Part shown: piece by piece, positions 2,001-29,647 of the stretch
Numbering within the stretch: the first letter of the stretch is position 1
How the letters are laid out: each line of letters opens with the position of its first letter
Virus record (IMG/VR): IMGVR_UViG_2740892219_000006
DNA length: 46,408 bases
Reading direction: 5' to 3' (one strand)
Source of the DNA: a virus
Lineage: Duplodnaviria > Heunggongvirae > Uroviricota > Caudoviricetes
The notes under the pieces: generated by a model
Told to the model about the DNA's origin: nothing
Databases searched by the model: none
The model's input: the letters and a program-made list of their open reading frames with translations, nothing else
Translations under genes and position numbers: made by a program

Positions 2001-2389
2001 GCTTTGCCTGTGAATATGTTCGCCCTTGCAGCGAGCTAAAGCTCGCGCCGGTTCGAGTCGCTACGCTCAAATATACCTCCTCCGGCACTTGCCGGAGGCA
2101 TGGAGCAGCCTGATCATCCTTTTCGAAACGGCGCGTTTCGAACTATACAAAATCAATTTATATAAGGCCGAAATAAGGCCTACGGCCGGGCTTTGCAGGA
2201 GGAAGGGGCGAGCCTTATCAATAAACGTCGATAAATACGCACACAGTAGCCATCAGAACGCGATAAAACGTAAGAAACATCATTTCCTATTAGACATAGA
2301 AAACTTATCTTATACGCAATGTAGTAAATTTCTATTGCCACATAGGAAAAGATTTCCTACCATCGTAGATATAATAAATGGAGATGGTT

Positions 2390-2677
2390 ATGGATAAAGA
2401 TACTGTTTTAAAAATGTTGAATCCGGCTTGTTTAAAAAAAGCGGATGAATGGGAATCTCCTACATGTGGAGAAGTTCGGGCAGTTATTGGCCTGACCGGA
2501 ATGAGCGGCTCGCAGTTGGCCAAAAAACTAGGCTTAAAAGATAGTCGCAATGTTCGCAACTGGCAGATGTTAAAGGAGTCCACATCCAGATCCAGCATTC
2601 CGTATGCAGCCTGGGCGCTGCTGTGTTACTTCGCTGGGTTAGGGTTAATCTTCATTGATGACAAAACAGATGTTTGA
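2390..2677 (+). CDS. XRE-family helix-turn-helix DNA-binding protein
   Basis: HTH-like segment LTGMSGSQLAKKLGLKDSRNVRNWQ; GGAG RBS before ATG 2390. Confidence 0.55.
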   Translation: MDKDTVLKMLNPACLKKADEWESPTCGEVRAVIGLTGMSGSQLAKKLGLKDSRNVRNWQMLKESTSRSSIPYAAWALLCYFAGLGLIFIDDKTDV

Positions 2678-7300: not shown

Positions 7301-7594
7301 TGTGATATCTCCGATTAAAGGAACTATCACCACCAATGACGCCAATCAATATGGTGGTGAGACGTACAGGGTTGGCGTAACCGGCACAATGACAAACCCG
7401 GCGCGGATTTCTCCGCCCCCGCACGCCCCACCATAATTTGGGTGTAGCAGTGCTTTACGCATAAAAAAACCGCTAACGCGGTATGCGCCATTGTGCAATC
7501 GGGACGCCAATCCCGACCGTAGATTTTGCTACGGCTCGGAAAGTGTCCACCAATGGCGCATTCATGTCAATACGGCGGGATTTTAACAGAGACA

Positions 7595-7609
7595 ACCACA
7601 TAGCGTGGG
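7595..7609. promoter_or_regulatory. Operator-like site ACCACATAGCGTGGG upstream of the antirepressor operon
   Basis: 14/15 match to the ACCAC-N5-GTGGT palindrome. Confidence 0.35.
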
Positions 7610-7680
7610 TTTGAAAAACGGAATTTTCTGCTCATTAAGCGCATGATTTGACCAATCAAATTTGTTTGATACTGAATTTT

Positions 7681-7806
7681 GGGAATCTAATGTGAATGTA
7701 AGGAACCTTAACGTGAGTGTTGGGAACTTAACGTGATTTATTGTTGAAAAAAGTTGCTTTGCATCCAATTTTTTGGATATGATTTGAATGTAGGGAACTT
7801 CATTGT
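7681..7806. promoter_or_regulatory. Direct-repeat array (GGGAAC-TTAACGTGA-like, 3-4 copies) plus palindrome ATCCAATTTTTTGGAT in a putative promoter
   Basis: Repeats at about 7681, 7700, 7720 and 7790; the 16-bp palindrome at 7763-7778 sits between TTGCTT (-35-like) and TATGAT (-10-like). Confidence 0.45.
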
Positions 7807-10691: not shown

Positions 10692-10726
10692 GCGTAGCCT
10701 CTTTTATACTTTTACATGTTGTCAAA

Positions 10727-10741
10727 ACCACAAAATGTGGT
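10727..10741. promoter_or_regulatory. Operator-like palindrome ACCACAAAATGTGGT (followed by a T-run)
   Basis: Perfect ACCAC-N5-GTGGT between the repressor gene and the next gene; could also act as a terminator hairpin. Confidence 0.45.
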
Positions 10742-10783
10742 TTTTTTGAGCGTAGAAATGCACGGCTTCCGCCGTGCTGTGTA

Positions 10784-11440
10784 TCATAACCAGTTGACAA
10801 CACTAACTACGCGGCCAAGAACTTTATAACGCTTAAATTCCTCATTATTCAGATGCTTAGTGTTCATTTCAGCATCCCTTTCGGTTGACAGCATAACAGC
10901 ATTGTCACCCGGTATGACTCTACAGTGCCTCAAAACAACCAGGCCATTTCTGTCTTCAAGGGCATAGATCCCCTCATGAATCTCTGTATCGTCTGTATTA
11001 ATCAGGACTTGGGAGCCAGGGGATATTGTTGGTGACATTAACTCATCGTTGCTCTGGAGAACTGACAGAGACGATGGGTTGATGTTCTTGCTTCGTAGAA
11101 TCTCCTGTTCTATCGCCAGCACTGGCTTTTCTCCGGCGTGCGATGCTATGTCATTTTTTATAGCTACAAGCCCAGGAATAACAGGAGCGTTAGTATTCTG
11201 GGGTGGGAACGGGTTATCTGTTAAGCACGCGATATAAGGCGCTGATGCTTTCAGGGCGTGCGCGATTTTCTTGATGGCAGGTATAGATGGTTGTCTTAAT
11301 CCGGCCTCATAGTTCTGCAAGGTGCTTAAGCCTATTCCAGTGACTTGCTGGAGATCTCCGGCAGTCATGCCGGATTGTTTCCGTAGAGTCTGAATGCGCA
11401 GACCTATTTCTTTCTTGATGTTCTCGTCGTTGCTTTTCAT
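10784..11440 (-). CDS. CI-like prophage repressor (N-terminal HTH, C-terminal S24 LexA-type peptidase domain)
   Basis: 218 aa; HTH near the N-terminus (LQQVTGIGLSTLQNYEAG); C-terminal region with lambda CI/LexA-like architecture. Confidence 0.85.
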   Translation of the reverse strand: MKSNDENIKKEIGLRIQTLRKQSGMTAGDLQQVTGIGLSTLQNYEAGLRQPSIPAIKKIAHALKASAPYIACLTDNPFPPQNTNAPVIPGLVAIKNDIASHAGEKPVLAIEQEILRSKNINPSSLSVLQSNDELMSPTISPGSQVLINTDDTEIHEGIYALEDRNGLVVLRHCRVIPGDNAVMLSTERDAEMNTKHLNNEEFKRYKVLGRVVSVVNWL

Positions 11441-11477
11441 GTCTCATCAATCGTGAATGGTGGGTTATTTATACATT

Positions 11478-11595
11478 ACCACATTTAGTGGTTTTCACAT
11501 GGTAAGACGAGAGGTGGACCACAAATAGAAGGTTATTTTTTGTTTTGCTCATTGAAAAACTCACGATATGTGGTTTTAATACCACGTATCGTGGT
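11478..11595. promoter_or_regulatory. Immunity control region: three ACCAC-N5-GTGGT operators with divergent promoters
   Basis: Sites at 11478-11492, 11560-11574 (one mismatch) and 11581-11595; rightward promoter TTGAAA (11552-11557), 17 bp, TTTAAT (11575-11580) overlapped by two operators. Confidence 0.6.
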
Positions 11596-11614
11596 TTTAA
11601 CTGGAGTTCGTTAA

Positions 11615-12109
11615 ATGACCTTTCAGGAGTGGGTTGACGAAAATGGAGGCCAAATTGGTGTTGCCAGAAAGTTTGGCTTTACGTCATCACTGATTGGTGC
11701 CTGGTATCGCTTCGAGAGATTCCCTCGTGCGGATAACCTGACGCTGCTGGTGGCGTATTCGGAAGGCCGGATTAACGTCCAGCAATGGGCGGCAGATTTT
11801 GCCGAACGTCAGCGCCAGCGTAGCGATGGCACATCGGTTCGGCAGAACAAGATCAAAGGGAATCTCCCTGTTAACTGCTTATCAAGGCTGAAAGCGGTTT
11901 TCTCTGAGTTGGGGATGCCTGCGGAGCGTTGCAATCTACGCGGTCCGCGATTCATTGCTCGCTGGAAACACTCACACGTAACCGTTTCAGAGGTTCGTGA
12001 TGCGATTACCGTGCTGGAGCTTAAGAATAAAGATTCCAGCGATATCGAGCTGATTCATAAGGAGATTAGCAACGCCCGGCGTTCAGCACTTGGGAGGCTT
12101 GAGGAATGA
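11615..12109 (+). CDS. Cro-like HTH protein with C-terminal extension
   Basis: First gene of the rightward operon; N-terminal GGQIGVARKFGFTSSLIGAWY resembles a Cro/YdaS-type HTH. Confidence 0.5.
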   Translation: MTFQEWVDENGGQIGVARKFGFTSSLIGAWYRFERFPRADNLTLLVAYSEGRINVQQWAADFAERQRQRSDGTSVRQNKIKGNLPVNCLSRLKAVFSELGMPAERCNLRGPRFIARWKHSHVTVSEVRDAITVLELKNKDSSDIELIHKEISNARRSALGRLEE

Positions 12110-12621
12110 TGATTCTGGCCTTCTTTGGTGATAATCACCAGATTCAATCGAAGGTGGTGCACTACCTTGATCAAACGATTAAAGGATTTGCTATCGATCA
12201 TATTGATAACGATAGCAAACATCTATCTGTAGATCAGAAAATTGGACGTGTGCAGCGACTGGTTGCCAGCCGTAACAGACGTGACACCGTAACAGTAGTC
12301 ACGGGGATAACGGAGGTCATGGAGTACCAGATGTTGCTGCATCGTGGAGCTGTTTTCTGCGTTCTTCCTGGCATTCTGCCAGCAATTCTTGCTCGTGGTT
12401 TTGTCCCTATTGATGAGTCGTTTTTATATGTAACCCCAAGCCGTTCCCTTCTGGATACGGAGGCGAAGCGTCGCATTTATATGATGCCGGACGAGGCATT
12501 TTCTGAATGTTACCGCCGTGAAATGAGGTTGGGTAAACGAGAAGTGTCTGTTGTTCGTGATGGCAGGTTTTTAAGAAGCCGCACGGTGAAAAGCACCAGA
12601 AATGACGGGGGCCATCAATGA
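12106..12621 (+). CDS. Hypothetical protein (171 aa)
   Basis: Start overlaps the upstream stop; no recognised domain. Confidence 0.45.
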   Translation: MMILAFFGDNHQIQSKVVHYLDQTIKGFAIDHIDNDSKHLSVDQKIGRVQRLVASRNRRDTVTVVTGITEVMEYQMLLHRGAVFCVLPGILPAILARGFVPIDESFLYVTPSRSLLDTEAKRRIYMMPDEAFSECYRREMRLGKREVSVVRDGRFLRSRTVKSTRNDGGHQ

Positions 12622-12851
12622 GTAGTTATGTTCGCGGTGCTGCGATGCATTGCCAGAATCCCCAATTCTGGCGCTTTCTGACCAGTAAAACAGGGAAGAA
12701 CATTTCAAACAGTTCTGAGGCCTCTGTGATTCTGCGTGAGTTTTGCGGGATCTCATCCCGTAAAGAGCTGGCAAAGAACTACGCGGCCAGAAGCATGTAT
12801 GTCCAGTTAATCAACGAGTTCAACCTCTTTATCAATGGTAAGGGGCGCTGA
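12618..12851 (+). CDS. Hypothetical protein (77 aa)
   Basis: Translationally coupled ORF in the early operon. Confidence 0.4.
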   Translation: MSSYVRGAAMHCQNPQFWRFLTSKTGKNISNSSEASVILREFCGISSRKELAKNYAARSMYVQLINEFNLFINGKGR

Positions 12852-13255
12852 TGAACGGACGTACGCCAACGAAGAAAGAGAAACTTTATATACAAGCGGT
12901 GCTCACTCACGTGGGTTGCATAGCTTGCATTATTGATGGCCGTGAAATTGAGAATCCAGAGCTGTGGACGGAGCTACATCACGATCCTGATTACGGCAGC
13001 GTTGATGAGAATTGCCACTTCCATAGCTTTGGGTTGTGCGCACCACATCATCGCGGTGTTGTGCCTGGTGGTGGGCGCGTGCCTCCGCATATTGCCGTTC
13101 GTCACCCTCCCCTGAGTAATTGTGCTCGCTTTGTTGAGCGTTATGGCACCGATGAATTTTTGTGTGCGCAGACGTGGGAGCTGTTGCCGCAGTCAGTTAA
13201 AGACGAAATTGGGTTTGATCTTAGTCTTGGTGAAGTACCAGGGGATACCAAATGA
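12851..13255 (+). CDS. Ref-like HNH-type nuclease (recombination enhancement function family)
   Basis: GRTPT...GCIAC...LHH...LC..HH pattern recalled from P1 Ref. Confidence 0.5.
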   Translation: MNGRTPTKKEKLYIQAVLTHVGCIACIIDGREIENPELWTELHHDPDYGSVDENCHFHSFGLCAPHHRGVVPGGGRVPPHIAVRHPPLSNCARFVERYGTDEFLCAQTWELLPQSVKDEIGFDLSLGEVPGDTK

Positions 13256-20148: not shown

Positions 20149-20224
20149 GGCCCCTTAGCTCAGTGGTTAGAGCAGGCGACTCATAATCGCACGGTCATCG
20201 GTTCAAATCCGGTAGGGGCCACCA
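20149..20224 (+). tRNA. tRNA with CAU anticodon (Met or lysidine-dependent Ile2 type), 3-prime CCA encoded
   Basis: Manually folded cloverleaf: 7-bp acceptor GGCCCCT/AGGGGCC, D-stem GCTC/GAGC, anticodon loop CTCATAA, T-stem ATCGG/CCGGT with TTCAAAT loop; the 5-prime half resembles the E. coli Ile2 tRNA from memory. Confidence 0.85.
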
Positions 20225-20532: not shown

Positions 20533-21120
20533 ATGGAGGCAATTGCATTGTTTAATCTGATTTATGCAGATCCCCCCTGGGAATACAAAGACAAGTGTAA
20601 GGATGGGAATCGTGGAGCTGGTTTTAAGTATCCAACGATGAAAGCTGAGGATATTGCTCGTATTCCTGTCTGGCAGCTTGCTAATCCTGAATCGTGTTTG
20701 TTGGCCATGTGGTGGGTTCCGACTCAGCCAGAAGAAGCGTTGCTGGTGGTGAAAGCATGGGGATTCAGGCTTATGACCATGAAGGGCTTCACATGGAACA
20801 AATGTGGTAGCCGACAACCAGATAAGCTGGTGATGGGGATGGGGCATATGACTCGTGCGAACAGTGAAGATTGCTTGTTTGCGGTAAAAGGCAAACTGCC
20901 GACCCGCCTTGATGCGGGGATCATTCAGTCGTTTACATCGCCTCGTTTGGAGCATTCTCGGAAGCCTGATGTGGTCCGTGACAAGCTGGTAAAGCTGTTA
21001 GGCGATGTTCCTCGTATTGAGCTGTTTGCTCGCGGAGATTTACCTGATGGTTGGCATGGCTGGGGCAACCAGTGCAATGGAGGTATCCAGTTGCATGATG
21101 CTCTCTGGCAAGTGGTATAG
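20533..21120 (+). CDS. MT-A70-family N6-adenine DNA methyltransferase
   Basis: 195 aa with DPPW motif (LIYADPPWEY) near the N-terminus; GGAGG RBS. Confidence 0.8.
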   Translation: MEAIALFNLIYADPPWEYKDKCKDGNRGAGFKYPTMKAEDIARIPVWQLANPESCLLAMWWVPTQPEEALLVVKAWGFRLMTMKGFTWNKCGSRQPDKLVMGMGHMTRANSEDCLFAVKGKLPTRLDAGIIQSFTSPRLEHSRKPDVVRDKLVKLLGDVPRIELFARGDLPDGWHGWGNQCNGGIQLHDALWQVV

Positions 21121-23353: not shown

Positions 23354-23977
23354 ATGACAAAACATCTTAATGTGGTTTCTTTACCACTTTCTGTGTTGAT
23401 TGGTTATGAAAAGAACGCTCGCACACACTCCGTGGAGCAGGTAGATCAGATTGTTGCCAGCATACAGGAGTACGGATGGACTAATCCGATCCTGATAGAC
23501 GAGAACAACGTTGTAATTGCTGGTCATGGTCGAATTGCTGCGGCCACTCAGTTGGGGATGGATGATGTTCCCTGCGTTGTTCTGGCTGGGCTAACGGAGA
23601 ATCAGAAGAAGGCATATCGTCTGGCCGACAACCGTATTCCGCTGAATGCTGGTTGGGATGAAGAGTTGTTAAGCGCGGAGCTTGCAGATCTTGCGGCCGA
23701 TGATTTTGCTCTGGACTCAATTGGTTTTACTCAGCGCGAACTGGATAACTTATTGAGTGCGGCAGTCTACGATGACACAGAGGGTATGGATATCCCATTT
23801 GAGAAGGATGAGGCCAAATCAGGCGTAAAAGTTCAGTACCTGTCATTTGGAGGTCATAAAATCCCGGCAACGGATGAGGAAGCGGATCGTTTTGACTGCG
23901 CGGTGTCTCGTTATGTTGATGATAATGGCAGCTATATCGGATTTGTATCCGCATTGCTGGCTGGGGAGGTGTGCTGA
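23354..23977 (+). CDS. ParB-like nuclease domain protein (paralog 1)
   Basis: ParB N-domain-like NPILIDENNVVIAGHGRIAAA; clearly paralogous to the 26644-27234 product. Confidence 0.7.
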   Translation: MTKHLNVVSLPLSVLIGYEKNARTHSVEQVDQIVASIQEYGWTNPILIDENNVVIAGHGRIAAATQLGMDDVPCVVLAGLTENQKKAYRLADNRIPLNAGWDEELLSAELADLAADDFALDSIGFTQRELDNLLSAAVYDDTEGMDIPFEKDEAKSGVKVQYLSFGGHKIPATDEEADRFDCAVSRYVDDNGSYIGFVSALLAGEVC

Positions 23978-25350
23978 TGCTTCACCTCAATTACGACATA
24001 ACGCACCTACGCGGCGCGGAATATAACCCGCGTTTTATCGGTGAGGATGATCTTGCGAGGCTGGCGGAAAGCGTCAGGGAGCTGGGGCTTGTGAAGCCAT
24101 TGATAGTGCGCGGCGATTTGCTGGTGGCGGGACACCAAAGGACGAAGGCGCTACGTAAATTGGGAATAACGCGTGCTGCGGTGTATGTGTTGCCCTGTGA
24201 AACGACGGTATACGACGAAGTACGGTTTAACCAACTGCATAACGGAACGGATTTTGATAGCGGAGATGAGCGTTGCAGGGTGTCAGGTCTGGAAGATAAG
24301 CATGGTTTTGTTCAGGTATCGGCAAGCCAGATCTCAGGCAATATGCGCGCGAAAATGGCATATGTTCGAAAGAACATAGCGGAACTGGTTATCAAGTATG
24401 GTCCGTGGGGTGGTTGTGTTGCTACTCAGTCTGGTGAGGTTATTCACTGTGCTCAGTATGCATTAGCAGCGAAAATGACGCGCACACCGCTAACGGTGTT
24501 TGTGATCCCTGATGTTGAGAAGGAAAAATACCAAAGTTATCTGAATAAAACTTATGGTGTATTTGAGTATTCTCATCTGGAGAAAACAACATACATCCAG
24601 ACGTATGCGCAGCTTATGCGGTTGCGTAATGGTGGCAGCCTGAAATCAAATCTGTATGAGTCGTTGATCCTCCCGATCATTGCCAAGACGCCAAGAGGAA
24701 TTGATTTTGGTTCGGGGCAGGGAGACTACGCGCGAATGCTCAGGGCAAAGGGATATAACCTGCATGATCTCGAGCTTTTCCGCCGTAAGGGCGCTGGAAA
24801 CACTCTGGATAGGGCCGCAACAAACCGGATGATTGATACGCTGGTGGACGACTTAAAAACGCGAGGGCGTTACGACTACGTGATTTGCGATAGCGTTTTG
24901 AACTCGGTCGATAGTGTCGAGGCTGAATGGTCCGTTCTGACGGTTCTAAAAGGCCTGTGTAAAGCTGGTGGGTCAATATTCTTTTCTGGTCGTAGCCGTG
25001 GAGAGCTGGAAACAGTCCTGAAGCAAACACAAGCGGCGAGTTCCAAAAGCCGGCTTTATTTTATTGATCATAACGGTTTTACCGCGTTGTACCGGAAGGG
25101 GCACTGGTTTTACCAGAAGTTTCACTCTGATGATGAAGTGAAGCAGTTGTGTCGTGTACATGGTTTCAGGATTAAGCGGTCAATATTCAACTGTAAGAGC
25201 TGGTATTTGCACGTCATTAACGATGATTCCCTTAGTTGGGCGAGTCTGGAGAAAGCTGTTCGTTTTGAGTTTGAGTTGCCGTTGCCTGGTGGTTCAACAA
25301 TCGGACGATCTGATGATGTGCTGGCGGCTTTCCGGCCGTTGATTAAGTAG
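23974..25350 (+). CDS. Fusion protein: ParB-like N-terminal domain plus class I SAM-dependent methyltransferase-like domain
   Basis: N-terminus LIVRGDLLVAGHQRTKAL (ParB-like); C-terminal half with GIDFGSGQGDYARML (motif I), DYVICDSVL and LKGLCKAGGSIFFS; no DPPY/NPPY amino-methylase motif seen. Confidence 0.6.
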   Translation: MMLHLNYDITHLRGAEYNPRFIGEDDLARLAESVRELGLVKPLIVRGDLLVAGHQRTKALRKLGITRAAVYVLPCETTVYDEVRFNQLHNGTDFDSGDERCRVSGLEDKHGFVQVSASQISGNMRAKMAYVRKNIAELVIKYGPWGGCVATQSGEVIHCAQYALAAKMTRTPLTVFVIPDVEKEKYQSYLNKTYGVFEYSHLEKTTYIQTYAQLMRLRNGGSLKSNLYESLILPIIAKTPRGIDFGSGQGDYARMLRAKGYNLHDLELFRRKGAGNTLDRAATNRMIDTLVDDLKTRGRYDYVICDSVLNSVDSVEAEWSVLTVLKGLCKAGGSIFFSGRSRGELETVLKQTQAASSKSRLYFIDHNGFTALYRKGHWFYQKFHSDDEVKQLCRVHGFRIKRSIFNCKSWYLHVINDDSLSWASLEKAVRFEFELPLPGGSTIGRSDDVLAAFRPLIK

Positions 25351-25366
25351 TGTGTAGGAGGCGCTG

Positions 25367-26086
25367 GTGGCTGACAGAATTGAGATAAAGATGGATTTTT
25401 CTTCTCAGGATATTCAACGACAACTCCAGCGCCTTGAAGAACGCGAATTGCCGTTCGCAATGGCGCTTGCGGCAACCAGAACGGCAAAGGCTTCTCAGGC
25501 TGCGATTAAGAATGAAATTAATCGGGTATTTGACAGGCCCACGCCGTGGATTCAGAACTCTACTTACGTTTTGGCCGCAAAGAAGAGTGATCCTACAGCC
25601 ATTGTGTATGCTCGTGAATGGGGAGGAACGCCAGCCCCTGTAACGTTGACTCCGCAAATCGAAGGTGGCCAACGACAGTACAAACGCTCAGAAGGGGCGC
25701 TAAGGGCTGGTGGATATTTGCCTAACGGCTGGCAGCTTGCTCCTGGTCCCGGCGCAAAGCTGGACAAATACGGGAATATTTCGCGGGGGCAATTACAGCA
25801 GGTCTTATCTGGCCTAAGAGTTCAGCGAGATGCGCATCAAAATCGCCGTCAGGGCAAGCCTACGGAGTTTTTTGTTGTTCGACCTGGTACAAGTAACCCG
25901 CTTCAACCAGGCGTCTGGCAGCGCGTTGGGCGGCGTCCTACGTTGATCCTTACGTTTATCCAGCAACCTAACTATTCGCAGCGTCTTGATTGGCATGGCG
26001 TGGCGCTGCGTGCTGGTGAGGATGCGTTTGCTGATGAAGTCACAAAGGCTATTGATGACATTCTTTCTAAGACCTTCTCTCGTTAA
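25367..26086 (+). CDS. Hypothetical protein (239 aa, Gly/Pro/Gln-rich centre)
   Basis: GTG start 6 nt after AGGAG; no recognised domain. Confidence 0.45.
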   Translation: MADRIEIKMDFSSQDIQRQLQRLEERELPFAMALAATRTAKASQAAIKNEINRVFDRPTPWIQNSTYVLAAKKSDPTAIVYAREWGGTPAPVTLTPQIEGGQRQYKRSEGALRAGGYLPNGWQLAPGPGAKLDKYGNISRGQLQQVLSGLRVQRDAHQNRRQGKPTEFFVVRPGTSNPLQPGVWQRVGRRPTLILTFIQQPNYSQRLDWHGVALRAGEDAFADEVTKAIDDILSKTFSR

Positions 26087-26643
26087 TCATCGTGTGGTTG
26101 ATGGTGTTGTTATGCAGAGTGTATTCACTGTGTTCTGTAGCGTCGCTCGCTGGCTGTCTGTGGGGGAGCACGAGCATCGTTTCATCGTCCGGCAGAATTG
26201 GGTCCTTCTGGCCAAAAGCGTTGGATGCGGGTCATTCGAACCCCGATGTTCGGCTAGCTAAACGTGAAAAAAGTTAGGTTAAAAGTTGCGGTAAAAGAAA
26301 TTTACTCATCTCATTGAAAAATATCGGGAAAATGTGATTTTTTGCTGTATTTGTGCTGGTAAAAAGAAAGTAGAAAATTTTCTTTTAGATCATCAAGATA
26401 CGTTCAGATCTTTAACCAATGTGATGTTGTTCTGATAAAAATCGTTATAAATCATGCAAATACATCCAATCTTTTAACTAAAACACCATCGCAAGATCCT
26501 TTTTACTTATAAAAACTTAATAAAATCAGATAATTATGCTGGTTTGTGTGATTTTTTATGAGTAAAAAGATCGTCATTTTTCTCTTTTAGTATCAATAAG
26601 TTAAACAGTTTTCTTTAACCTGTTGTGTTATGGCGGTTAAAAA

Positions 26644-27234
26644 ATGGCTCTAAAAATCGAATACTTACCAGTCGGTAAGCTGCTCAGATATGCCAAAAAT
26701 TCACGGACTCATTCAGATGAGCAAGTTGAACAGTTGGTGAACAGTATCCGTGAGTTCGGTTTCACTAATCCTGTGCTGATCGATGAAAAGAATGAACTGA
26801 TTGCGGGGCATGGGCGGCTTGCAGCAGCCGAAATTCTGGAAATGGATAAAGTTCCGGCGATTCGGTTGAGTAACCTTTCTGAAAAACAGAAGAAGGCGTA
26901 CAGGATTGCAGATAACAAGCTGGCCTTAAATGCTGGCTGGGATATGCAGCTTCTGGCCGAAGAAGTCAAAGAGTTAATGGATGATGATTTTGATATTGAT
27001 CTGCTTGGGTTTAATGATGCAGAGCTTGACGAAATGTTAAGCGATGAACAGCCGCAGGAAGAAGACGATAATTCTTCCCCTGTTGTTCAAATTAAGTACC
27101 TGGCTATTGATAAAGAACGTATTCCCGCGACGGATATGGAAATTGCATTGTTGCTGGATGTTTATCGTCAGTACCACGACGCGCATGAAACGCATGAGGG
27201 ATTTGTTCAGTATCTTGCTAATGGTTGCAAGTAA
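26644..27234 (+). CDS. ParB-like nuclease domain protein (paralog 2), immediately upstream of terminase
   Basis: NPVLIDEKNELIAGHGRLAAA; high similarity to paralog 1 over the first ~110 residues. Confidence 0.7.
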   Translation: MALKIEYLPVGKLLRYAKNSRTHSDEQVEQLVNSIREFGFTNPVLIDEKNELIAGHGRLAAAEILEMDKVPAIRLSNLSEKQKKAYRIADNKLALNAGWDMQLLAEEVKELMDDDFDIDLLGFNDAELDEMLSDEQPQEEDDNSSPVVQIKYLAIDKERIPATDMEIALLLDVYRQYHDAHETHEGFVQYLANGCK

Positions 27235-27785
27235 TGGCCATCGTCAGTAAGTCAGAGTTTGCCCGCCGGAAAGGTATTTCTCCGGCAATGGTTACGAAGC
27301 TTTGTCGTTCCGGTCGCATTCCAGTGCTGAAAAGCGGCAAGCTGGATTTTGATAAAGCTAGTGCGGCTTATGAAGCGAGCCGACAGGTTGGTCGTGAGGT
27401 ATCTGCTGAAAACGGAAAAAGAGGGCATGGGATATCTTCGGAACAACCAGAGTTACCCGCTGATGATGCCGGATTAGCTGGTGGTACTTCCGGTGTTGCG
27501 GTGCAATTCAACAAGGCTAAGACTGCAGAAAAAATTTATCAGGCAAAGCTGAAACGCCTTGAATTTGAAGAAAAGGAAGGCTCTCTCATCGCTAAAGATG
27601 CGGTCAGGGATGATGCATTTCTGGCAGCTAATGAATTGCGTAGCCGCTTATTTAGTATTGCTCCAAGAGCAGCTCCCCGTTGTGAAGGCAAAACAGCCAG
27701 GGAGATCGAACGCATTATTGAAGACGAGATTAATTTTGCGCTTCAGGCGCTCCAGGAATCCCGATTTATTAAGCAGGAAGAATAA
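27234..27785 (+). CDS. Terminase small subunit (Nu1-like, N-terminal DNA-binding domain)
   Basis: 183 aa directly upstream of the large terminase; start overlaps the upstream stop. Confidence 0.6.
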   Translation: MAIVSKSEFARRKGISPAMVTKLCRSGRIPVLKSGKLDFDKASAAYEASRQVGREVSAENGKRGHGISSEQPELPADDAGLAGGTSGVAVQFNKAKTAEKIYQAKLKRLEFEEKEGSLIAKDAVRDDAFLAANELRSRLFSIAPRAAPRCEGKTAREIERIIEDEINFALQALQESRFIKQEE

Positions 27786-27790
27786 ACCTC

Positions 27791-29647
27791 ATGGGCGAAA
27801 CAGTATGGAGCACCGCTTTTTTCCGTGCGCTTCGCCCTAAATCACGGCTAACTGTTTCCGAATGGGCTGATAAGTATCGTCATGTAGCGCCGGGAACGTC
27901 TCCAGAGCCAGGGCCGTGGCGTACAAGCCGAGTGCCATATTTGCGTGAACCAATGGATGTTATTGGTGACGCTGATACAGAAACAGTAGTGATGCAATGT
28001 AGCTCGCAAATTGGTAAATCCGAATTACAGCTAAATGTTATGGGTTACTTTGCAGATCAGGAGCCATCTCCTCAGTTGATGATTTATCCAACGGTAGAGG
28101 CGGCTGAGGCTTTTTCAAAAGAGCGTATTGATCCGACGTTCAAATATTCCCCTGGTTTGAAACACAAGCTGCATGAAGGGAAAGAGGGGCGCGGTGCAGC
28201 CAAAAAGTCCAGCACGACTATACGTATGAAGCATTACGCTGGTGGATATATAGCACTTGTTGGTGCTAATTCCCCAGCAGGTCTTGCATCTAGGCCAATT
28301 CGAATACTGTTAGCTGATGAGATTGATCGTTACGGTGTGACGCAGGAGGGCGACCCACTAAAACTAGGTATTCAGCGTACTACCAACTTTCATAATCGTA
28401 AGAAAGTTTTTGTTTCTACTCCTGTTTTGGAGGAAACGAGCAAAATCCACAAGTGGTTTAAGCTCTCCGATCAGCGTTACTACCATGTTCCTTGCCCATG
28501 TTGTGGCACCATGCAGGTGATGAAATGGTCGCAAGTCAGATGGGATAAGAGCGATTCAGGTGAGGCGTTACCGGAAACGGCCAGATATGAGTGCTGTGAG
28601 TGCGGCGGGATTATGCGCGGATCTGGTAAACCAGACGTTGATTGGTTGGCGAAGGGGGTATGGATAGCTGAACATACTGGAGTTAAAGGTATTGTTGGTT
28701 TTCATATTAACAGTCTTTACTCCCCGTGGGTTGCATTGTCAGAGCTGGTTGAAGAATTTACGGAAGCAACCAGAAACCGCGATAAAAATGGATTAATGGA
28801 GTTTATTAACCTTAAGCTGGGTGAGCCATGGAAAGAGGATGCTAAAGACGATATCGATCCTGAATACTTGTTGCAACGCAGAATAAGGTTTGAAGAGTTT
28901 TTACCAGATGATGTTTTATTGTTAAGTGCTGGTGTTGACGTACAGGACACGTATTTAGTTTGTGAATTGGTCGGTTGGGGAAAAGGTAAGGAGTCATGGG
29001 GGATAGAATATAAAATATTCCCAGGTGATCCCGCACAAGATGTTGTCTGGAAACAACTTGATGAATACTTACTCCGTAGCTGGTCATTCCGTGACGGTCG
29101 AAAATTACAGATTTCTTCCGTTTGTATTGACTCTGGTGGGCATTTTACGACAGAGGTATATCGCTTTACTAAGCCGAGAGAATCAAGGCGAATATACTCT
29201 ATCAGGGGGCGTGGTGGGGTAGGTTTACCATTTATAGGAAAGCCAAGTAATAATAACCGTGTGGGTGCTATGTTGTTTAATTTGGGGGTTGATGATGGTA
29301 AAGGGACCATCATGGCAAGAATTAAACTACATGATCCTGGTCCTGGTTATATGCATTTCCCATTAGATTCTGACAGAGGATATGATACCGAATACTTTAA
29401 AGGATTATTATCAGAGAAAAAAATATTTGAATATAAAAATGGGCAGACAAAAGAAAAGTGGGTGAAAGTCTACGAGCGTAACGAGCCTCTTGATTGCCGT
29501 AACTATGCAACTGCCGCGATGGAAATTCTGAACCCTAATTTTAACTGGCTTGCCGAACAGGAAATGCGAGGTAATGTGTATGTGCAGAACTCGTCAGGTA
29601 TACGTAGAAGACGCCGTAGAGTTATAAGTAAAGGCGTAACCATATAG
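27791..29647 (+). CDS. Terminase large subunit (lambda GpA family)
   Basis: 618 aa; GpA-like N-terminal ATPase region (IRILLADEIDRYG); gene order as in lambda. Confidence 0.85.
   Translation: MGETVWSTAFFRALRPKSRLTVSEWADKYRHVAPGTSPEPGPWRTSRVPYLREPMDVIGDADTETVVMQCSSQIGKSELQLNVMGYFADQEPSPQLMIYPTVEAAEAFSKERIDPTFKYSPGLKHKLHEGKEGRGAAKKSSTTIRMKHYAGGYIALVGANSPAGLASRPIRILLADEIDRYGVTQEGDPLKLGIQRTTNFHNRKKVFVSTPVLEETSKIHKWFKLSDQRYYHVPCPCCGTMQVMKWSQVRWDKSDSGEALPETARYECCECGGIMRGSGKPDVDWLAKGVWIAEHTGVKGIVGFHINSLYSPWVALSELVEEFTEATRNRDKNGLMEFINLKLGEPWKEDAKDDIDPEYLLQRRIRFEEFLPDDVLLLSAGVDVQDTYLVCELVGWGKGKESWGIEYKIFPGDPAQDVVWKQLDEYLLRSWSFRDGRKLQISSVCIDSGGHFTTEVYRFTKPRESRRIYSIRGRGGVGLPFIGKPSNNNRVGAMLFNLGVDDGKGTIMARIKLHDPGPGYMHFPLDSDRGYDTEYFKGLLSEKKIFEYKNGQTKEKWVKVYERNEPLDCRNYATAAMEILNPNFNWLAEQEMRGNVYVQNSSGIRRRRRRVISKGVTI

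Follow-up and report, generated by a model that had tools for sequence, protein, structure and literature searches.

A conserved pair of ParB-like and ParB/methyltransferase genes beside the probable cos site of an Escherichia coli phage-plasmid, and its possible role in late methylation of phage DNA

Some phages encode thymine dioxygenases (5mYOX) that need a small ParB-like protein for activity on double-stranded DNA (dsDNA); this protein has retained its nucleotide-binding domain and has no DNA-binding one, and the 5mYOX and ParB genes co-occur with terminases (O'Toole et al., PNAS 2026, PMC13229309). In another report, fusions of a ParB-CTPase-fold domain to a Methyltransf_23 domain were catalogued as a phage-enriched architecture of unknown role (Kaljevic et al., PNAS 2025, PMC12704722). 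The locus analyzed here is related to both. It occupies positions 23354-27234 of a 46,408-nt virus sequence (IMG/VR record IMGVR_UViG_2740892219_000006; this whole stretch is called the window below), which is a phage-plasmid of E. coli of about 48 kb and of the temperate myovirus type. A ParB-like gene (ParB1) is followed there by a fusion of a ParB domain to an S-adenosylmethionine (SAM) methyltransferase, a gene for a 239-aa protein (p239), a stretch that very probably holds the cos site, and a second ParB-like gene (ParB2), which adjoins the genes for the small and large terminase subunits, TerS and TerL.

As with the thymine dioxygenases, a small ParB-like gene with no DNA-binding domain match is adjacent to the enzyme gene and stands by the terminase. 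However, the enzyme is a SAM methyltransferase and not an Fe(II)/2-oxoglutarate dioxygenase of the TET/JBP type, and it has its own ParB domain besides ParB1. The likeness may lie in the mode of action and is not one of family membership. When the fusion was compared with the gut-phage construct 'gdpMethyltransferase23' (GA118), fragments of the latter were 41-42% identical to it in the ParB and methyltransferase parts and the Box II sequence, GHQRTKA, was identical. The motif strings of this homolog are among the ATP binders in Dataset S6 of PMC12704722. Since the architecture has been catalogued and one homolog binds ATP, the fusion is no new kind of protein. The covered parts of the same source report architecture and nucleotide binding and do not report a substrate, an activity, an upstream ParB partner, terminase adjacency or the c143 protein described below. 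An earlier prediction made from the letters of the window (the original prediction) had singled out the locus as an uncharacterised system; this stands for the function of the ParB1-fusion pair and for its place beside the terminase, but the architecture was already on record. The window copy also differs from the catalogued fusions in that p239, cos and a second ParB separate it from terS. In the main text of PMC12704722, ATP binding is given to 'bacterial SAM-dependent methyltransferase' fusions; the strings of the ATP binder GA118 in Dataset S6 (DSAFAELKGSLKTL / GFILP / GHQRTKA) are those of the gut-phage gBlock 112 and not of the bacterial gBlock 108.

A third group of relatives links the locus to DNA methylation. 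The first 150 or so residues of ParB1 and ParB2 are, judged by sequence, the module that is fused to true DNA methylases, namely those of the N6_N4 type (PHROG 498, E 1e-50). This module matched the PADLOC type II methyltransferase model with E 1e-38 to 2e-40 and was 43-46% identical to a ParB-N6N4 construct. In the ParB/N6_N4 fusions (PHROG 498; PADLOC PDLC03229; B. cereus Bce_0392) the homologous N-terminal module is joined to an amino-methylase of the DPPY type, whereas here the ParB is free-standing and the neighbouring methyltransferase is non-DPPY. The ParB domain within the fusion is itself divergent, with GHQR in Box II compared to GHGR in ParB1 and ParB2. No defence system was detected with the PADLOC models, the sole matches being those of the ParB module to the type II methyltransferase model. 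M.EcoGIX was considered for comparison as a ParB fusion and dropped, its paper not describing it as one.

The fusion gene (23977-25350, + strand) encodes 457 aa arranged as ParB_N (PF02195, residues 9-70), a family-specific middle domain (about residues 100-232) and a class I SAM methyltransferase domain (PF13489, Methyltransf_23, residues 234-400, 32.7 bits compared to a cutoff of 27). Although the open reading frame (ORF) can be read from a GTG at 23971, the likely true start is the ATG at 23977, which shares 1 nt with the stop codon of ParB1 (TGATG) and has a GGAGG Shine-Dalgarno sequence upstream, indicating translational coupling. The protein belongs to PHROG 5475, a family without known function, with E 1.6e-265 over residues 3-459 and profile positions 1-457 of 458. 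Motif I (D-x-G-x-G-x-G; DFGSGQG at residue 245) was kept in all 46 family members, the acidic residue at the end of beta-2, E268, was invariant across the family, as were many other residues, and Box II was GHQR in 46/46 fusions. The amino-methylase motif [DNS]PP[YFWH] occurred in none of the 46 members, and no N6_N4_Mtase or MT-A70 Pfam match was found. The C5-methylase motifs were looked for in the same members; PCQ was found in 0/46 and ENV in 3/46, with no DNA_methylase Pfam match. The C-terminal domain is therefore no ordinary N6/N4 or C5 DNA methylase, and the predicted fusion to a SAM-methyltransferase-like domain lacking DPPY/NPPY was borne out.

An AlphaFold2 model of the fusion had a predicted local distance difference test score (pLDDT) of 93.6 and a predicted template modelling score of 0.90. 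Foldseek matched its methyltransferase domain with probability 1.0 to many class I methyltransferases. The matches were generic for the class and included uncharacterised SAM methyltransferases, Trm9, METTL6, glycine N-methyltransferase and natural-product methyltransferases. The middle domain had no detectable relatives in Pfam or PDB, even when a profile was used, and PDB sequence searches gave weak ParB and generic methyltransferase matches alone for the fusion and ParB2. Residues 112-180 or so might form a second, degenerate ParB-like domain, the order of secondary structure repeating that of residues 4-73, but a profile-profile comparison was not significant. The family is large: more than 716 close matches were found in a word-indexed search, and an exhaustive search (E <= 1e-30) gave 238 clusters at 50% identity, nearly all of 450-490 aa, matched end to end and constant in architecture.

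The fusion does not travel alone. Among 77 fusion loci in IMG/VR, 69 had upstream sequence, and all 69 had a ParB-like ORF of about 190-250 aa upstream of the fusion; it abutted or overlapped the fusion start in most and lay no more than about 750 nt away in the rest. TerL was the first large downstream ORF in at least 39 of 47 non-redundant loci, and these TerLs belonged to at least four Pfam families (GpA, Terminase_6, Terminase_3 and TerL_ATPase). The order ParB-fusion-TerS-TerL is found in the annotation of Bacteroides phage BS-TP3 and likewise in two unrelated metagenomic phages. A Brochothrix phage has its fusion among the early genes, some 4 kb away from terS. When one genome per species was taken, the fusion family was present in Enterobacterales, Alphaproteobacteria, Bacillota, Planctomycetota, Myxococcota, Chloroflexota, Kiritimatiellia, Bacteroidaceae and Melainabacteria-type genomes. 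The same neighbours were found where the pair could be examined, in Proteobacteria, Bacillota, Planctomycetota, Kiritimatiellia and Bacteroidaceae, and the pair as such occurred in phages and prophages of about nine phyla. For cultured phages the fusion was found in 7 of 50,697 phage records. ParB1 and the fusion are an ancient, mobile, translationally coupled late-gene pair, with ParB1 as the dedicated upstream partner of the fusion. The literature covered seems to contain neither this obligate two-gene organisation (three genes with c143) nor its near-universal position before the terminase across terminase families, nor the separation of pair and terminase by a structural gene, cos and a second ParB that is seen in this phage-plasmid. 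Papers on Yersinia phage HQ103 and on a Serratia phage had no bearing on the locus.

In most non-enterobacterial loci a further gene, c143, encoding about 143-165 aa, lies directly downstream of the fusion on either strand; examples are at 2210-2644 (+) of locus L007, at 7361-7804 (-) of L025 and at +1363 (-) of L103. Its product has conserved Cys and His residues and the motifs HCA[RK]CL, Y[LV]CGV, PYxWxxNxH and [LT][TS]CRNFQFGA. Neither Pfam nor PHROG nor PDB gave a match for it, and the window has no copy. The c143 protein may be a third component of the module. Two other features of the family were seen at individual loci. In Chloroflexota (Oscillochloris, Kouleothrix and Chloroflexales; L112, L114, L117, L118 and L119), two to three full-length fusion paralogs stand in tandem with no terminase detected nearby, a different and possibly non-phage context. 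On five viral contigs longer than 20 kb (L007, L021, L032, L034 and L073) the contig end lies just 23-520 nt upstream of the ParB gene of the module. Because ends near ParB are commoner than random breakage would give, this suggests a genome terminus just upstream of ParB-fusion-TerS-TerL in these viruses.

ParB1 (23354-23977, + strand, 207 aa) and ParB2 (26644-27234, + strand, 196 aa) are ParB/Srx-fold proteins with 47% identity along their whole length (E 8e-62), and each matches PHROG 620 in full (E 1e-73 and 5e-75, respectively). The Pfam ParB_N model (PF02195, threshold 26.3 bits) was passed by ParB2 with 33.7 bits, while ParB1 with 23.4 and the fusion with 24.3 fell just under it. All three had strong ParB PHROG matches and weak matches to solved ParB, Spo0J and Noc chains. 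The ParB-like genes and the paralogy of the original prediction are thus real, all three proteins being related at profile level. The arginine of Box II G-x-x-R is kept as GHGR at residue 57 of ParB1 and residue 55 of ParB2. Pfam found no match in the C-terminal tails of ParB1 and ParB2, and neither a helix-turn-helix (HTH) Pfam match nor a [LFI]G[KR]G[LFI] ParA-interaction motif was found in the ParB-like proteins, which scored 16-40 bits with the partition-ParB model TIGR00180 (cutoff 58.45).

ParB2 is the first gene after cos, and its stop codon overlaps the start of TerS (TAATG), again indicating translational coupling. Modules like ParB2 were found in 272 phage records, at the N-terminus of N6_N4 DNA methylases, fused to DUF4417 or free-standing. 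In several phages the free-standing form is the first gene past the left genome end, upstream of the terminase genes. For example, cos is annotated at 1-11 and ParB at 90 in Lactobacillus phage c5, and ParB is likewise the first gene past the left end in Vibrio phages R19R and Rostov 7 and in Rhodobacter phage RcFrancesLouise. The cos-ParB-TerS-TerL block of R19R and Rostov 7 has the same order and spacing as that of the window, with identities of 63-65% for TerL, 42-43% for TerS and 58-62% for ParB (N-terminal part). However, neither phage has the ParB1-fusion pair, and a search of the last 3 kb at the right end of R19R gave no homolog of p239. In a neighbour-joining tree built without bootstrap, ParB1 grouped with the fusion-partner ParBs of the nearest fusion lineages, and ParB2 with its own orthologs and the ParBs of R19R and Rostov 7. 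Because they fall in different tree groups, ParB1 and ParB2 are by sequence old paralogs with separate histories and not the product of a local or recent duplication. ParB2 is a generic ParB of the 'first gene after cos' kind that moves together with TerS and TerL and probably serves to handle DNA during packaging. In one relative (L013, IMGVR_UViG_2824588292_000004), ParB1-fusion-p239 is kept and ParB2, at about +2636 counted from the start of the fusion, is cut to 124 aa; the packaging module behind it is another one, with a large ORF of 489 aa, so that the mosaic joint lies inside ParB2.

Between p239 and ParB2, the original prediction of an ORF-poor, AT-rich stretch just upstream of the terminase was confirmed at 26087-26643, where the GC content was 0.38-0.41 compared to about 0.48 nearby. 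No Rfam family and no sigma-70-like promoter was found in it. This is very probably the cos region, with a left part of normal GC content that contains the putative cleavage site and an AT-rich part upstream of ParB2 that is presumed to be the terminase-binding and late-leader region. The termini of four phage records fall within 26229-26242, some 400 bp before ParB2-TerS. Of the three from Yersinia phages, two break at 26229/26230 and one at 26241/26242, 12 nt apart and bracketing the sequence GGTCATTCGAAC (26230-26241), which is the inferred cohesive-end segment and the core of the invariant block GGGTCATTCGAACCCCG (26229-26245). The fourth, Vibrio phage vB_VpaM_R19R, is a linear record from another group. 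When its joined ends were aligned to the window the termini fell at 26239/26240, and the joint flanks TTGGGTCCTTCTGG, GCGGGT, ACCCCG and CTAGCTA were kept amid otherwise unalignable DNA; from 143 nt off its left end R19R has ParB, TerS and TerL in the same order with 62% (N-terminal part), 42% and 65% identity. Among relatives whose ParB1, ParB2 and fusion were 59-69% identical to those of the window, GGGTCATTCGAACCCCG was invariant, and together with AAAAGTTAGGTTAA, about 30 nt downstream, it was one of the two longest conserved intergenic runs.

Judged by these sequence data, it is very probable that cos is located here, with an overhang of about 10-12 nt at 26230-26241, and that the anatomy of the region is to be read accordingly. 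With cos in the 2.7 kb between the paralogs, the virion chromosome would have ParB1-fusion-p239 at its right end and ParB2-TerS-TerL at its left end. The sequence GGTTAAMA (cf. the GTTAACA repeats of R19R) was no commoner in the window than expected by chance; short direct repeats considered as cosB may also be due to chance in AT-rich DNA, and no cosB is claimed. In vB_YpM_44 (L002) there is a deletion of about 90 nt in the AT-rich part (window about 26330-26640), ParB2 starting at record position 313 compared to 415 in vB_YpM_39 and vB_YpM_41 with the 12-nt offset allowed for. A plaque-forming phage can therefore do without part of the stretch between cos and ParB2.

The last gene before cos encodes p239 (25367-26086, + strand). 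It had been predicted to be a protein with no recognisable domain, and there was indeed no Pfam or NCBIfam match (Pfam HK97-gp10_like included) and nothing in a PDB sequence search. Nevertheless, p239 matches PHROG 1924, a family with the label 'minor tail protein', over its whole length (E 2.5e-97). Its AlphaFold2 model, built from an alignment (pLDDT 86), gave nothing significant in Foldseek but resembles a neck protein of the HK97 gp10 family, namely chain P in the SaPI1/80alpha structure 9mu2. Homologs with 29-42% identity were found in three unrelated phages directly upstream of TerS and a GpA-type TerL, without ParB or fusion. On the strength of the model it seems reasonably likely that p239 is a structural protein with an HK97 gp10-like core fold, acting in the neck or in tail completion, and the gene, which had been counted as cargo, is probably none. 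Compared to the HK97 gp10-family neck proteins, p239 has more than double the length, and its gene stands before cos, outside the head-tail genes. An ortholog on Salmonella pAR-0407-1 (NZ_CP044178.1, L096, 4701-5417) is named 'glycosyltransferase family 1 protein' in the RefSeq-derived annotation, which is probably an error.

The element carrying these genes was identified by database comparison. The region had 99.4% identity with a circular 48.5-kb plasmid from E. coli ATCC 25922, and 99% with Yersinia phages vB_YpM_39, 41 and 44 and Escherichia phage vB_EcoM-613R2. A similar copy was found in 74 of 5,426 complete E. coli genomes, nearly always as a plasmid of about 48 kb. According to RefSeq, the ATCC 25922 plasmid encodes RepA, ParA, a toxin-antitoxin pair, an invertible tail-fibre segment, lysis genes, a tRNA and an MT-A70 methylase, as well as a full terminase, portal, capsid and contractile-tail set. 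The region lies between the lysis cassette and the terminase genes, with all genes on the + strand, and every ORF of the original prediction was found at its coordinates. The arrangement was kept over at least 80% of the query in 65 of the 74 matching E. coli records (62/104 with a longer query) and in 52 of 62 matching plasmid records. Downstream of ParB2 are the genes for TerS (27234-27785, + strand, PHROG 57, E 7e-42) and a lambda GpA-type TerL (27791-29647, + strand, 65% identical to R19R TerL), the homologs of which have GpA_ATPase and GpA_nuclease domains. The ParA gene is about 13 kb from the ParB genes, on the opposite strand, with its own small downstream gene. Upstream, 2.2 kb before ParB1, a gene for an MT-A70-family DNA methyltransferase was found at 20533-21120 (+ strand; 82.6 bits; PHROG 359).

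One derivative, pGF31-D (NZ_CP172156.1, L097), is a 39-kb plasmid that has lost about 9.4 kb, with the junction at about 26096 of the window. The loss runs from an early gene, of which a pseudogene is left, through the lysis genes, tRNA, MT-A70 gene, ParB1 and fusion to p239, and cos-ParB2-TerS-TerL is retained. It is probably a defective prophage kept as a plasmid. As pGF31-D is still maintained without ParB1 and the fusion, the pair is dispensable for plasmid maintenance.

For the region as a whole we give the explanation set out here a probability of about 0.5. Its functional part, ParB-assisted, ATP-modulated, non-canonical methylation of phage DNA late in infection, is proposed by analogy with the described systems and stays tentative, at somewhat less than even odds. 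The two ParB/Srx-fold domains would use ATP to associate with each other and with DNA, and would bring the class I methyltransferase domain to phage DNA that has been replicated and is about to be packaged. DNA released from the cell would then bear a non-canonical methyl mark, other than m6A or m4C of the DPPY type or m5C of the PCQ type, that would probably protect it from host nucleases or serve self-marking. Such a pair would correspond, with a methyltransferase as the enzyme, to the thymine dioxygenases of phages that depend on ParB. The data above show the anatomy, the paralogy, the conservation of the pair and of its position, the folds and, from record termini together with conservation, the location of cos, while ATP binding by a homolog comes from the literature; that ParB1 interacts with the fusion, that the substrate is DNA, and when and to what end the pair acts is what we infer. 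A bolder form of the proposal takes ParB1 and the fusion (with c143 in most other lineages) for an ATP-gated, ParB-clamp-dependent DNA methyltransferase that makes a chemically new mark at packaging, other than N6-A, N4-C or C5-C, for example at another base position or on the backbone; this is a long shot.

Several observations weigh against this proposal. None of the top 50 fold matches of the methyltransferase domain was a DNA methylase, the nearest being small-molecule, tRNA and protein methyltransferases. The methylome of the ATCC 25922 lysogen contained GATC, CCWGG, RTAC(N4)GTG and GGTCTC alone, all given to other enzymes (PMC12679398). This would be expected if the genes are silent in the lysogen or if the mark is not m6A, m5C or m4C, and it lends no positive support. 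The phage already encodes a conventional adenine methylase in its MT-A70 gene. The near-universal terS adjacency fits a packaging role equally well, and the basis for an interaction of ParB1 with the fusion is gene linkage. As for cos, its basis is the termini of database records together with conservation, and the three Yersinia records, which carry the label circular, share a single submitter.

Other explanations were weighed against the same evidence. The original prediction was of an accessory island bounded by the paralogs, that is, a cargo island upstream of the terminase that had been inserted by recombination between duplicated ParB genes and whose contents would be dispensable. Cargo is common between lysis and terminase genes, the segment does have a paralog on either side, and the mosaic joint of L013 lies inside ParB2. 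However, the segment very probably holds cos, and its excision would then destroy packaging. ParB1 and ParB2 belong to different subclades, each with orthologs elsewhere; ParB1 is an obligate neighbour of the fusion in every lineage examined, and p239 and its pre-cos position are kept in phages without ParB or fusion. The one examined member lacking the segment, pGF31-D, has the larger 9.4-kb deletion in which the lysis genes are also gone. With cos within it, the 'island' would exist on the circular map alone and be no removable insertion, and we consider this explanation scarcely credible. The region is very probably the joint of the packaged chromosome ends of the phage-plasmid, a composite of four units and no single island. 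Another explanation is a role as packaging accessory. The ParB/Srx proteins would be nicking or DNA-bridging cofactors of the terminase, like the HNH endonucleases of HK97-like cos phages, and the packaging site would be marked or regulated by the methyltransferase, much as Dam methylation reportedly gates P1 pac cleavage (a finding ascribed to Sternberg and Coulby in 1990). The pair adjoins terS/terL in at least 83% of loci, ParB2 is coupled to TerS, and several cultured phages have a stand-alone ParB as their first gene past cos. Some methylase-fused ParB domains also nick non-specifically, as stated for Bce_0392 in PMC5512222, which cites this result. HNH packaging accessories of the HK97 gp74 type are similarly small putative nuclease-fold proteins beside cos and terminase (PMC3592412), but the proteins here have the ParB/Srx fold and no HNH motif, and their genes also stand with non-cos terminases. 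The occurrence of the pair with at least four unrelated TerL families, cos or headful, argues against a mechanism-specific cofactor. In addition, GpA-type TerL has its own nuclease domain, p239 and cos separate ParB1 and the fusion from terS in the window, and the fusion of the Brochothrix phage is about 4 kb from terS in the early region. A packaging function is unlikely.

The substrate could also be something other than DNA, namely a nucleotide or small molecule on the ParB/Srx domain, tRNA or another RNA, or a virion or host protein, with the ParB folds as nucleotide sensors. Among solved structures, the nearest folds belong to small-molecule, tRNA (Trm9, METTL6) and glycine N-methyltransferases, the fusion has no DNA-methylase catalytic motif, a homolog binds ATP and the phage has a tRNA(CAT) gene. 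The ParB/Srx fold includes ATP-acting enzymes such as sulfiredoxin and SerK (PMC12704722). Nevertheless, the class I fold is generic, so its nearest neighbours predict the substrate poorly, and the module of the partner ParB is found joined to true DNA methylases. ParB-linked DNA-modification genes are described in just such a late position beside the terminase (PMC13229309). A non-DNA substrate is somewhat unlikely. As for partition, the ParB-like proteins might be centromere-binding proteins of a low-copy plasmid prophage that has a ParA gene, or they might regulate late genes in the manner of IbrB, a ParB-fold regulator. KorB is another regulator with this fold (PMC13229309). The absence of HTH or other DNA-binding domain matches and of a ParA-binding motif, with TIGR00180 scores of 29-40 bits compared to the cutoff of 58.45, speaks against both roles. 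The remote ParA gene, on the opposite strand, has its own small downstream gene, a plasmid without ParB1 and the fusion is still maintained, and the same genes occur beside terminase genes in integrated prophages and virulent-type contigs. Partition or late-gene regulation is thus very improbable. Late DNA methylation by the ParB1-fusion pair remains the explanation we prefer.

If late DNA methylation is correct, ParB-switched DNA-modifying enzymes extend from phage dioxygenases to a methyltransferase without any known DNA-methylase motif, and phages of at least nine bacterial phyla would carry an unrecognised DNA mark. The chemically new mark, if true, would be a new class of phage DNA modification and anti-defence. 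The system is tractable, the element being resident in E. coli ATCC 25922 and its close relatives plating on Yersinia pestis EV76. The cos site of a common E. coli phage-plasmid family can now be placed. 'ParB' genes of this kind are not to be read as partition genes when phage-plasmids are classified, and where an 'island' is called across the joined ends of a circularised genome, it is an artefact of that circular map.

Two further features of the window were recorded. A tRNA gene with anticodon CAT is located at 20149-20224 (+ strand); it was called tRNA-Met by ARAGORN and in the Yersinia phage records, and tRNA-Ile by RefSeq, implying lysidine modification. The invertible tail-fibre segment lies at about 1-1724 (10712-12887 of the ATCC 25922 plasmid), where tail-fibre assembly genes and partial tail-fibre genes are opposed and a Hin-type recombinase gene adjoins them, the usual host-range switch of P2/Mu-like tails.

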